A stretch of DNA of 64,000 bases, taken from assembly GCA_965247115.1 (NCBI GenBank), contig CBDFGR010000003.1, positions 416,001-480,000 of the forward strand, read 5' to 3'. The position numbers and the translations under genes were made by a program. A model generated the notes under the pieces. That model did no database searches. It worked only from the letters and a program-made list of their open reading frames with translations, and had not been told where the DNA came from. Positions 16,212-18,979 of this stretch are shown in pieces. Source of the stretch: Myxococcota bacterium. Lineage in GTDB: Bacteria > Myxococcota_A > UBA9160 > SZUA-336. How positions within the stretch are numbered: position 1 is the stretch's first letter; every line of letters begins with the position of its first letter.

Positions 16212-16652
16212 CTAGCGCAGCGCGTCGATCGACGAGCGGAGCGTCTCGCCCACCTCGCGCATCTGCTCGTCGCTGGCGTACTTCGTGCGAGGCCAGAAGA
16301 AGCCGCGCAGACCGTCCTTGCGCCGCCGCGGCACCACGTGCACGTGCAGGTGCGGAACGCTCTGGCTGATCCGGTGGTTCATGGCGATGAAGCTGCCCTC
16401 CGCACCGAGCCCGCGCTCGAGCGCTCGCGCGAGCAATCGCACATTCGTGAAGACCGGACCGACCAGCTCGGGCGGTAGGTCGAGCAGCGTCTCGTAGTGC
16501 CCGCGTGGAACGAGCAGGCAATGGCCGTGAAAGAGCGGCCGACGATCGAGAAACGCGAAGCACGTCTCGTCCTCGAACACAGCGCACGACTCGAGCTCAC
16601 CGCCAACGATGCGGCAGAACATGCAGCAGGCTTGTGTGGGTCCGGCGGTCAA
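16212..16652 (-). CDS. HIT family nucleotide hydrolase
   Basis: CMFCRIV and QSVPHLHVHVVPR histidine triad. Confidence 0.9.
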   Translation of the reverse strand: MTAGPTQACCMFCRIVGGELESCAVFEDETCFAFLDRRPLFHGHCLLVPRGHYETLLDLPPELVGPVFTNVRLLARALERGLGAEGSFIAMNHRISQSVPHLHVHVVPRRRKDGLRGFFWPRTKYASDEQMREVGETLRSSIDALR

Positions 16653-16682: not shown

Positions 16683-16700
16683 ACTGGTCCCGGGACCAGT
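16683..16700. repeat. Perfect 18-bp palindrome ACTGGTCCCGGGACCAGT
   Basis: Self-complementary sequence seen directly. Confidence 0.9.
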
Positions 16701-16958
16701 GCGTTCATAACAATATTTCTTGAAAAAAAGCAAGAGATCCTTTGATAGGTTTCGAGAACTCGAGCGAGATGAAGCGAGTTCTGCGCTAGAACTTCGTTCC
16801 TCAGAGCTGTGATGCGTCTCTGCGAGTTGTTCTGCGGATTTCTGGCCGCGAAGTCTCAGTCTCGCTCGATTGCCCGGCATAGCAAATTCTCCGACACCGA
16901 AATACGTCGTGTTATCTTTCGGATCTCACCACTTCTTGGTCCCGGAGGAAAGACACTA

Positions 16959-18032
16959 ATGGAGGGTTCTCTTAAGACCGTCTCTGACGACAGACTGCTC
17001 AGAGGCCTCGACGCGCTCGTAACGAGGACTCGTCAGAACGAGGCGGAGCTGCTCACCTACCTAGCAGAGGTCGACACGCGAAAGCTCTATCTAGCAGAGG
17101 GCTACTCGTGCATGTTCCTCTACTGTACGGACGCGCTCCACTTCTCGGAGGCGTCGGCCTATCGTCGCATCGCGATCGCTCGCGCCGCGCGTGTACATCC
17201 GCTCTTGCTCGAGCGAATCCGTGAGGGGGCGCTGCATCTCGCAGGGGCGAAGTTGCTCGCTCCCCATCTGACTCCGGAGAACCGGGGAGAGTTGCTCGAT
17301 TTGGCTCGTCACAAGAGCAAGCGTGCGATCGAAGTGCTCCTTGCTGACCGCGCTCCAAAGCCGGACGTGCCGGCGCGAGTCAGGCAGCTCCCCGAGCGCA
17401 GGCCGGCCTCTGCTGTCCGGATGCGCCCGGAGATTGAGTCCAGGCACGAGGCTCCGAGACAGGAGACGGCTTCCTCGCCTTCGGTGCCACGCGCTCCGAG
17501 TGCTGCGCCGAGCCCTCTCGGCGGCAAGCGCTTCAAGATCCAGTTCACTGGCGACCAGGCGCTCTGCGACAAGCTGCGCCAGGCACAGGGGCTGCTCCGC
17601 CACCAGGTTCCGGACGGCGACATTGCGGAGATCTTCGATCGAGCCCTTACGTTGCTGGTTGGAGACGTGAAGCGGAAGAGGTTCGGCCAGACGTCGAGAC
17701 CCCGAAGACGGTCGAAGGCTACGAAGAAGCCCGGAGCCGTTTCTCGGCATATCCCGGCGGAGATCAAACGGGCCGTCTTCGCGCGGGACGGAGGTCGGTG
17801 TACGTTCGTAGGGCCGAACGGTCGCCTCTGCGGCTCAGGTGACTTCCTCGAGTTCCATCACCAGGACCCCTGGGCCAGGACGAAGCGGCACTCGATCGGG
17901 CGAATCGAGCTCCGCTGTCGGGGGCACAATCAGTACGCGGCGTTGCAGGACTATGGGGCTGACTACATGGCGCGGTTCGCCAGACGAGACGACTGCGCTC
18001 GGGCGCAGCTGGACGTGGAGGGGCGGGAATGA
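16959..18032 (+). CDS. HNH-domain protein with DUF222-like helical N-terminus (repeat-family nuclease)
   Basis: N-terminal LAEVDTRKLYL..GYSCMFLYC..LHFSE..AYRRI; C-terminal RHIPAEIKRAVFARDGGRCTF..C..LEFHH..LRCRGHN. GGAGG RBS. Confidence 0.8.
   Translation: MEGSLKTVSDDRLLRGLDALVTRTRQNEAELLTYLAEVDTRKLYLAEGYSCMFLYCTDALHFSEASAYRRIAIARAARVHPLLLERIREGALHLAGAKLLAPHLTPENRGELLDLARHKSKRAIEVLLADRAPKPDVPARVRQLPERRPASAVRMRPEIESRHEAPRQETASSPSVPRAPSAAPSPLGGKRFKIQFTGDQALCDKLRQAQGLLRHQVPDGDIAEIFDRALTLLVGDVKRKRFGQTSRPRRRSKATKKPGAVSRHIPAEIKRAVFARDGGRCTFVGPNGRLCGSGDFLEFHHQDPWARTKRHSIGRIELRCRGHNQYAALQDYGADYMARFARRDDCARAQLDVEGRE
17992..18008. repeat. Near-perfect palindrome ACTGCGCTCGGGCGCAG at the 3' end of the HNH gene
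   Basis: CTGCGC/GCGCAG stem with a TCGG centre; same geometry as the 16683 palindrome. Confidence 0.75.
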
Positions 18033-18979
18033 GCCAGGTCGATCTCGTCACCGGGGCGTTCGGGTTTACCGGGCGGCACATCGCGGCGCGCTTACTCGGG
18101 CGTGGAGGACGGGTGCGGACGCTGAGCGGCCTACCCTCGCCCACGGGAAGCAAGATCGAGGCCCTTCCCTACTCGTTTGAAGACCGTGGGCGGCTCGTCG
18201 CGAGCCTCGAGGGGGTGCAGACGCTCTACAACACGTACTGGGTTCGCTTTGATCACGGGCGCGTGTCGTACGAGCGGGCTGTCGCGAATACGCGGTCGCT
18301 GTTTGCGGCGGCGCGCGATGCGGGCGTACAGCGGGTGGTGCACGTGAGTATTGCGAATCCGGAGGGGAATTCGGATCTGCCGTATTACCGGGGGAAGGAG
18401 CTGCTCGAGCGGGAGCTGGTCGGGTCCGGGATGTCGTATGCGATCTTGCGGCCGACGGTGCTGTTCGGGGATCGGGGGATTCTGATCAACAACATCGCGT
18501 GGCTGCTGCGGCGGTTGCCCGTGTTCGCGATCGTGCGTAGGGAGTATGGGCTGCAGCCGGTGCATGTGGATGATCTGGCGCGGGTGGCGGTCGAAGCAGG
18601 GGACTCGAACGAAGCGTTGATCGCGGACGTTGCGGGGCCGGAGGTGTTCACGTACGAGGAGCTCGTCCGCGCGATCCGGGGCAGCGTGGGGAGTCGGTCG
18701 CTGGTGGTGCACGTACCTGCGGTGCTGGGGCTCTGGCTCGGGCGCGTTCTGGGGCTGTTCGTACGGGATGTATTGGTCACGCGGGACGAGCTCCGCGGGC
18801 TGCGTCGGAACCTGCTGGTGTCTCTGGAGGAGCCGCGGGGAGAGATCAGCTTGCGAGAATGGCTCGAGCGGAACCGTGACTCGGTGGGTACGCAGTATCT
18901 GTCGGAGCTCGGGTTGCACTATCGCGACCGCGAGGCTCGCGACCGCGAGGCTCGCGCCGCGAATTCGAGTGCTGGCTGA
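18029..18979 (+). CDS. NAD(P)-dependent epimerase/dehydratase (atypical SDR, NDUFA9-like)
   Basis: VTGAFGFTG Rossmann motif, YYRGK, ILRPTVLFG, QPVHVDD. ATGA overlap with the HNH stop. Confidence 0.85.
   Translation: MSQVDLVTGAFGFTGRHIAARLLGRGGRVRTLSGLPSPTGSKIEALPYSFEDRGRLVASLEGVQTLYNTYWVRFDHGRVSYERAVANTRSLFAAARDAGVQRVVHVSIANPEGNSDLPYYRGKELLERELVGSGMSYAILRPTVLFGDRGILINNIAWLLRRLPVFAIVRREYGLQPVHVDDLARVAVEAGDSNEALIADVAGPEVFTYEELVRAIRGSVGSRSLVVHVPAVLGLWLGRVLGLFVRDVLVTRDELRGLRRNLLVSLEEPRGEISLREWLERNRDSVGTQYLSELGLHYRDREARDREARAANSSAG
18922..18956. repeat. 15-bp tandem duplication (TCGCGACCGCGAGGC x2 plus a partial copy)
   Basis: Seen directly; encodes RDREARDREAR. Confidence 0.85.

Follow-up and report, generated by a model that had tools for sequence, protein, structure and literature searches.

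What kind of genetic unit is a lone HNH gene that stands between two palindromes, and what do the palindromes do? The question is raised by a locus in the 64,000-nucleotide stretch of DNA analysed here (the window). The initial annotation had taken this locus for a multicopy mobile or selfish element with palindromic ends, encoding an HNH protein alone, and had likened its ends to the single-stranded hairpins that IS200/IS605 or RAYT systems recognise. The first of these claims was borne out by the analysis and the second was not. The explanation that we favour, and hold to be probable, is a unit of 1.3 kb whose protein would bind duplex palindromes as a dimer and cut beside them, with host repair then excising, inverting or copying the unit.

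The locus and the protein it encodes

Both palindromes were found where they had been annotated, and the left one extends to a perfect 18 bp, ACTGGTCCCGGGACCAGT (16683..16700, no strand), with the core CTGGTCCC-GGGACCAG. It forms the left end of the mobile unit, is likely to be an operator of the encoded protein, for which it is the candidate binding site, and is present in the orthologue of the same-genus genome G002 too, with one mismatch. The right palindrome, ACTGCGCTCGGGCGCAGC (17992..18009, no strand), with the core CTGCGCTC-GGGCGCAG, sits within codons 345-351 of a single ORF of 357 aa (16959..18032, plus strand). This ORF is the only gene between the palindromes, as had been annotated, and no second coding gene was found between the left and right palindromes of the window. 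Position 17999, a T in the window, reads C in four of four runs of related strains, and therefore the right end in those strains is a perfect palindrome with a CCGG centre. The Y of the YCGG centre given by the initial annotation is, as far as these runs go, a strain-specific change, and CCGG is found instead in 85 of 103 sites. The left and right palindromes of the window copy are equal at 7 of 12 inner bases, which is atypical among copies, and one protein specificity does not simply explain sites that differ at 5 of 12 inner bases. The C-terminus of P0003, a protein without a placed locus, consists of the residues that a left-type palindrome would encode, and P0003 is 92% identical over 287 aa to the G002 copy at the window locus. 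This hints that the right end of the window copy was replaced, a hint that we do not count as evidence.

Outside the unit on the left lies a divergent HIT-family gene (16212..16652, minus strand). On the right, a tail of about 23 bp (18010..18032, plus strand) runs from the palindrome to the stop codon and is common to several paralogues at unrelated loci. The stop codon (TGA) overlaps the ATG of a NAD-dependent epimerase gene, the 5' end of which (18029..18126, plus strand) forms the right neighbour. At the 3' end of the epimerase gene (window 18924-18959) there is a 15-bp tandem duplication (CGCGACCGCGAGGCT) that is absent in three of the four related-strain runs.

Between the left palindrome and the ORF lies a leader (16701..16958, plus strand) that is conserved among paralogues and, in agreement with the initial annotation, AT-richer than its surroundings (49-54% GC against about 66% around it and in the genome). 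It contains a lone -35-like hexamer (16742-16747), which is TTGACA in relatives and paralogues and has an A-tract upstream of it, a second, weak -35 (16891-16896), an extended -10-like box (16910-16918) and an RBS (16944-16949). The layout is that of a split promoter (window 16742-16918), the second half following the lone TTGACA by about 150 bp. In the paralogue C3:2442093 a natural deletion fuses the leader halves into a near-consensus promoter, as they are likewise fused in G002 (L142), and the second half has been lost in C3:1414300 and L145. These leader elements may act as a promoter; a sigma-70 scan of the leader gave no site at the strict threshold. A guide RNA in the leader was considered and rejected, the consensus fold of 12 leaders reaching only -2.4 kcal/mol with an unfavourable covariation term (+0.9) and with any double change at 4 of 21 pairs. 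An Rfam search of the leader returned one chance-level match and none of relevance.

For the protein, modelling predicts a ParB/Noc-type DNA-binding domain, a homodimer and an HNH fold. The ORF is laid out as a ParB/Noc-like helical domain, a proline-rich linker, a ribbon-helix-helix-like segment and a zinc-binding HNH domain. An alignment-based model of the 357-aa protein reached a mean pLDDT of 83; a single-sequence model of the N-domain (pLDDT 50) was too poor and was not used. The N-terminal helical domain (aa 8-133; 16980..17357, plus strand), which includes a putative recognition helix at about aa 63-79, has a predicted DNA-binding fold of the ParB/Spo0J/KorB type. Aligned with VIA-align, it matched ParB (6s6h; Z 8.9, rmsd 5.3, 118 aligned), Spo0J (1vz0; Z 8.6, rmsd 3.7, 108 aligned) and KorB (1r71; Z 7.5, rmsd 4.0, 109 aligned), Z values below 13 being in the middling range for helical folds. 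Foldseek ranked the same ParB-type families first (probability 0.95-0.99), at E values of 0.1-0.3 that are not significant. With the ParB-like match beginning at residue 7-12, the window protein leaves no space ahead of it for the N-terminal CTPase domain of ParB, and lacks that domain.

The homodimer prediction scored 0.80 and the best control 0.00; of the reference structures, 20 of 30 solved homodimers and 1 of 23 single chains attain the dimer mark. The runs agreed in at least 76% of contacts, with pLDDT of at least 71, and the predicted interface is formed by N-terminal helices together with the paired strands 192-198. This supports a homodimer of the window protein, short of proof. Strands 192-198, which pair between both chains of the predicted dimer as in ribbon-helix-helix proteins, belong to a strand-helix-helix segment (aa 190-241; 17526..17681, plus strand) that we read, from the model, as a putative ribbon-helix-helix segment. 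The HNH nuclease domain (aa 259-333; 17733..17957, plus strand) matched HNH nucleases with a Z of 7.8 (5h0o, a phage HNH; rmsd 2.9, 72 aligned), and all 65 homologues conserve C281, C291, H301, C320 and N324, which comprise the zinc ligands and the pair H301/N324. At the middle position of the HNH motif, where Asn is usual, the window protein has Arg315; this position is Asn in 50 of the 179 homologues that could be parsed (268 in total). Since this residue is an arginine here and variable in the family, nuclease activity is a prediction.

Judged by dN/dS, purifying selection acts on all three domains (0.21, 0.16 and 0.16 among 10 paralogues, with 0.38 for the linker); between two pairs of orthologues the ratio is 0.24 and 0.19. 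The initial annotation had called the ORF DUF222-like/HNH, and it was the HNH part of the label that stood: PF01844 (HNH) matches 26 of 65 homologues and DUF222 one of them (E 3.5e-4), and the window protein itself has no Pfam match. The DUF222 model touches two paralogues weakly (E 0.02-0.03, 15 bits against a cut-off of 24.4, over less than a third of the model), and the NCBIfam IscB model is weakly touched by 10 of the 65 members (best E 3e-5).

Copies, vacant sites and flanking DNA

The gene occurs at 14 paralogous loci in this genome (G000), with 54-74% amino acid identity to the window protein and with several copies broken. Most copies are flanked by palindromes of 16-20 bp, one about 270 bp before the start and one inside the last codons, the latter in most copies about 70 bp after the HNH motif. 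The best paralogue is 77% identical at the DNA level and near-identical pairs of copies are absent from the genome, so that there has been no recent burst. The palindrome motif proposed in the initial annotation is indeed far above background, with 19 matches in the genome against 0.14 expected under an order-4 Markov model (both strands are counted, and a perfect palindrome counts twice). With a looser palindrome score the genome yielded 25 sites and simulated DNA (5.0 Mb) yielded 2. Element ends make up 17 of the 25 high-scoring sites (11 plus 6 left ends of minus-strand copies), and about 8 palindromes in the genome are solo.

The same arrangement was sought at homologous loci from relatives, the phylum and metagenomes, a set that includes a few duplicates, orthologues and broken copies. 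The left site was found at 56 of 125 scorable loci (1 of 70 control windows) and the right site at 57 of 118 (1 of 75 control windows), with median positions of -260 and +81. The ORF reaches the right site before its stop in 46 of 52 cases, and the 3' palindrome is kept in homologues as had been anticipated. At either end considered singly, more than half of the homologous loci have no scoring site, and in several myxobacterial families none was seen. The site pattern is present in 6 of 7 genomes with a strong homologue against 2 of 34 other genomes, the seventh carrier, G033, using another palindrome. Presence of the gene is patchy (8 of 41 relatives; at least 26 of 301 genomes in the phylum). 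The family comprises 2,941 matches among 7,997 scored candidates, and 7,396 protein clusters at 50% identity have E < 1e-30; its members are nearly all unnamed or called 'hypothetical' or 'McrA-like'. A GTDB-wide scan with a single protein gave only 8 loci, which means that the range outside Myxococcota is poorly sampled, and there was no match in plasmid and phage collections.

Two further arrangements were seen in the phylum. The assembly of G014 (89% complete), which is one of the two genomes with the site pattern but no strong homologue, contains eleven solo palindromes (L181-L191). The likeness of two of them extends over another 230 bp, and no nuclease gene was found in their flanks or in the assembly. 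In the phylum family f22, L039 and L042 are single-copy homologues with a different upstream palindrome (CAGGCCGCGCGGCCTG) and no right site, and are possibly domesticated copies.

When 13 loci of this genome were compared with G002, 5 were shared, the window locus included, and 7 were without a copy. A copy was called absent only where both flanks were found; the thirteenth locus was ambiguous and C2:503959 lay outside the comparison. The initial annotation had envisaged an empty site between the HIT and epimerase genes, and none was found there. The window copy is present in G002 and in close strains, and is old and fixed. In G002 the HIT gene and the element are on one contig end and the epimerase gene is on another, and in G001 and three more distant genomes the epimerase gene occurs in other contexts. 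The contigs of four related-strain runs contain no joint skipping the window copy, which is spanned by those of X6 and X7. It was paralogues, not the window locus, that had empty sites.

The clearest of these sites is that of the paralogue C2:1857431, where exactly 1,277 bp are missing from contigs of runs X6, X7 and X8 (X6 and X8 possibly being one strain). The same skip has weaker support in X5, where the depth over the element region suggests that filled and vacant alleles may coexist. At the joint, 18 letters fit both sides, and these letters are the palindrome. This means that the two alleles differ palindrome to palindrome, one palindrome remaining in the vacant allele. In G002, which is more distant, this site has no palindrome. 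Since the solo form occurs in strains with flanks diverged by about 2% and by 3-7%, nearer to and farther from this genome, one re-entry in the lineage of this genome is as economical as repeated loss. The solo form could also be a passive deletion between 18-bp direct repeats, which would look the same. At C2:1346988 a solo palindrome in this genome corresponds to a full copy in G002; palindrome and right flank agree between the two, and the left side differs by 3.4 kb. At C3:2442093 the G002 copy is inverted relative to that of this genome, and the change of orientation falls at the palindrome. No target-site duplication is visible at new sites, where the flanks are 12-20% diverged. Two of 30 copies, both in G010 and none in this genome, carry 19-28 bp of their own ORF end before the left site, as a circle junction or a tandem would give.

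Other repeats were observed around the copies. At L150:3022 (G010:C25), 113 bp from the 3' end of another copy, palindrome included, survive in inverted orientation about 400 bp upstream of a full copy, which suggests that copies land in or beside older copies. An insertion sequence of 1.29 kb occurs at about 27 places in G000 (for example C2:504346-505634 and C3:1481379-1482665) and interrupts the paralogue C2:503959; its G002 relative is found just beyond several element ends. A repeat of about 100 bp (L157:5266-5368; G000:C3, about 1122270-1122370) lies just upstream of C3:1121867 and has dozens of copies in G002.

The DNA behind the copies is informative about their source. At C3:2416584 and C2:1971673 the element is followed by a decayed copy of the first 80-100 bp of the window's epimerase gene, which is itself single-copy. 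The two tails scored 66 and 61, where the highest of 3,000 background scores was 42, so that 2 of 10 downstream regions pass; the tails of the other 8 paralogues gave no significant match to the epimerase 5' end. The tail of C2:596723, similar by eye, was rejected as epimerase-derived, its score lying within background. With pieces of the epimerase gene behind two paralogues, the window locus is the likely donor, and the copied stretch can extend beyond the right palindrome.

Palindromes of the element type also enclose other DNA. In this genome two identical ones bracket a 1.6-kb island without an HNH gene (L165; G000:C3:1479377-1481030), whose cargo consists of toxin-antitoxin-like ORFs and a transposase remnant. 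The orthologous place in G002 (L177; G002:C31) has three such palindromes, two of them with about 45 bp of shared flank, and a different cargo of Phd-like, VapC-like and PEP-CTERM-like ORFs (labelled by eye from translations). At L152:2794-4413 (G010:C108) one palindrome is present in triplicate, together with an upstream stretch that its copies have in common, like a cassette array: the first interval holds a small ORF that is MazG-like by eye, and the next one holds the HNH unit.

At the level of sequence, these comparisons establish dispersed copies, gain and loss, an exact palindrome-to-palindrome difference, opposite orientation and capture of donor flank, and it is very likely that the locus is a mobile selfish unit bounded by palindromes. 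As to how such a unit may move, we propose that a dimer would bind the left and right sites and repress its own promoter, and that the HNH domain would nick or cut at or near a bound palindrome, vacant solo palindromes included. Exchange via the 18-bp identity would then pop the unit out and leave a solo site, and the same exchange would return it, in either orientation, to a solo site. More rarely, repair synthesis would copy the unit to a new intergenic place, running past the right palindrome and taking along 20-110 bp of donor flank. We put forward this particular cut-and-repair route tentatively, giving it a little less than an even chance.

A different use of the same nuclease would be retention or homing, in which the protein would not itself carry the unit to new places: it would cut vacant solo palindromes, homologous repair would restore the filled allele, and new loci would arise via rare illegitimate repair. 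TnpB acts in this manner for IS605 according to excerpts of PMC10690162. Filled and solo alleles that differ by exactly the unit, and flank capture, which resembles co-conversion, would both be accommodated, as would the purifying selection on orthologous copies; the solo form in nearer and farther strains fits one re-entry equally well. Unlike in classical homing, however, the filled allele keeps two intact sites and is not protected by site disruption, and opposite orientations at one site together with circle-junction-like ends are unexpected from simple homing. We regard retention as unlikely, if the best of the alternatives, and prefer cutting followed by excision, inversion or copying of the unit.

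The palindromes as probable binding sites

Domains of the ParB, Noc and KorB type bind double-stranded palindromes. Among the 103 sites, the two central base pairs are symmetric in 91 and 99, like the arms. Mismatches in arm pairs 3-9 are G·T in 16 cases and A·C in 15, a comparison that is unaffected by the site-picking score, although that score favours paired sites. No match to the Y1/HUH transposase family was found among the 65 members. The Noc site TATTTCCC-GGGAAATA, as given in the portion of PMC7383237 consulted, has the same 16-bp geometry and the same centre as the left site. Since the centres are symmetric, there is no G·T bias, no member is of the Y1/HUH type and the site is Noc-like, we read the palindromes as duplex operators, and ParB-type double-strand operator binding is likely.

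The initial annotation's reading would instead make the palindromes single-stranded hairpins in the manner of IS200/IS605 or RAYT/REPIN, recognised by the window protein or by a HUH transposase acting in trans. It is true that both can fold (-9.2 and -7.9 kcal/mol), that the right palindrome is subterminal with a shared tail, that read-through into the flank recalls rolling-circle elements and that the genome has six weak Y1_Tnp-family matches. None of these six matches is near a listed site, however, and the right-end fold is no better than shuffles (z -1.2). The centres are self-complementary and loopless, G·T is not preferred over A·C, and the predicted N-terminal fold argues for binding to duplex DNA. 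Template switching, a process known to perfect palindromes, can make symmetric changes, so that 'compensatory' changes alone are no evidence of a functional hairpin. We consider hairpin recognition improbable.

The outer bases AACT..AGTT are near constant and the inner bases differ by subfamily. Distant homologues are bracketed likewise by palindromes of other sequence. The types CTGCCCCC and CTCGGTCC are examples of non-cognate sites. Within a copy, 10.7 of 12 inner bases agree between the left and right ends, and shuffling the pairs gives 6.6 (32 copies; 0 of 20,000 shuffles, not corrected for kinship); in this genome taken alone the figures are 9.9 and, for shuffled pairs, 7.9 (10 copies, p 0.00045). 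Residue 69, in the putative recognition helix, tracks base 5 of the site (MI 0.87), residue G going with base G in 12 of 12 cases, H with C in 15 of 16 and N with T in 10 of 12, after 9 of 76 rows were dropped as duplicates or atypical sites; four tree-corrected tests of this pairing, with only 1-5 independent pairs, gave no significant result.

The weakest alternative, which we think very improbable, is a domesticated or addictive autoregulated nuclease, toxic and with some role for the host, whose palindromes are repressor operators only, with ordinary duplication, passive deletions and quasi-palindrome correction: the old fixed copies, the purifying selection even between orthologues, the lack of near-identical copies and the perfecting of palindromes by template switching would all suit it, but the patchy presence of the gene with its lineage-specific loci, the many broken copies and the coincidence of the unit boundary with the operators speak against it.

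Relation to known systems

If the palindrome-bounded mobile unit that we favour is real, it would represent a mode of transposition without a transposase, would provide natural, re-codable, rare-cutting nucleases specific for 16-18 bp, complete with natural specificity variants, and would account for thousands of 'HNH/DUF222-like' genes. Now that the unit has been delimited, a candidate site for binding named, and a naturally vacant allele and a donor with its recipient identified, binding, cutting and mobility are directly testable, and the vacant site of the sister copy offers a direct way to test movement in a very large unexplained nuclease family. We give about an even chance to a whole class of transposase- and recombinase-free elements in which a ParB-derived dimer joined to an HNH domain uses self-specified 18-bp palindromes to excise, invert and re-insert its own gene, changes specificity via a few recognition-helix residues and can mobilise cargo between two palindromes. 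No description of this element design was found in the open-access literature, to which the search was confined (subscription journals lay outside it). The design is new in that it departs from IS200/605, RAYT, OMEGA and homing endonucleases in what defines each of them; the mechanism is one that we infer.

In gene organisation the unit resembles REP13E12 of mycobacteria, in which DUF222 (PF02720) is combined with HNH (PF01844) and which is likewise dispersed and multicopy, with a helical N-terminal part, a C-terminal HNH domain and no transposase. The function of the REP13E12/DUF222 repeats is described as undefined in the sections seen of a 2026 preprint (PMC13061034), which do not mention terminal palindromes or a ParB-like fold; in the extracts of PMC3592412 and PMC10589994, DUF222-HNH is mentioned in passing only. 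The unit lies below the DUF222 cut-off and belongs to Myxococcota rather than actinobacteria, and is at most a distant relative of DUF222/REP13E12.

With IS200/IS605 (TnpA Y1, TnpB) and RAYT/REPIN the unit shares short palindromes at its ends, one small gene, solo palindromes elsewhere and a nuclease that may cut vacant sites, but it is without HUH transposase, hairpin loop, strand bias and guide RNA. Excision of IS200/IS605 leaves no ends, whereas the vacant allele of the unit keeps one 18-bp palindrome. RAYT/REPIN systems combine a single-copy HUH gene with hundreds of REPs, whereas here a multicopy HNH gene is accompanied by about 8 solo sites. Homing HNH endonucleases and IscB/OMEGA (HEARO) resemble the unit in having an HNH domain in a selfish gene. 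In contrast to homing endonucleases, the unit keeps its recognition site at both ends rather than disrupting it, if the palindrome is that site, and in contrast to IscB/OMEGA it matched no RuvC fold and its leader is without conserved RNA structure.

The remaining comparison is with ParB-parS, Noc-NBS and KorB-OB, to which the unit is alike in the putative ParB-like fold of its N-domain, its predicted dimer and its loopless 16-bp palindrome with a Noc-like centre. It differs from ParB and Noc in that its protein is fused to an HNH nuclease, the sequence of its site varies by subfamily, and its sites bracket the gene.
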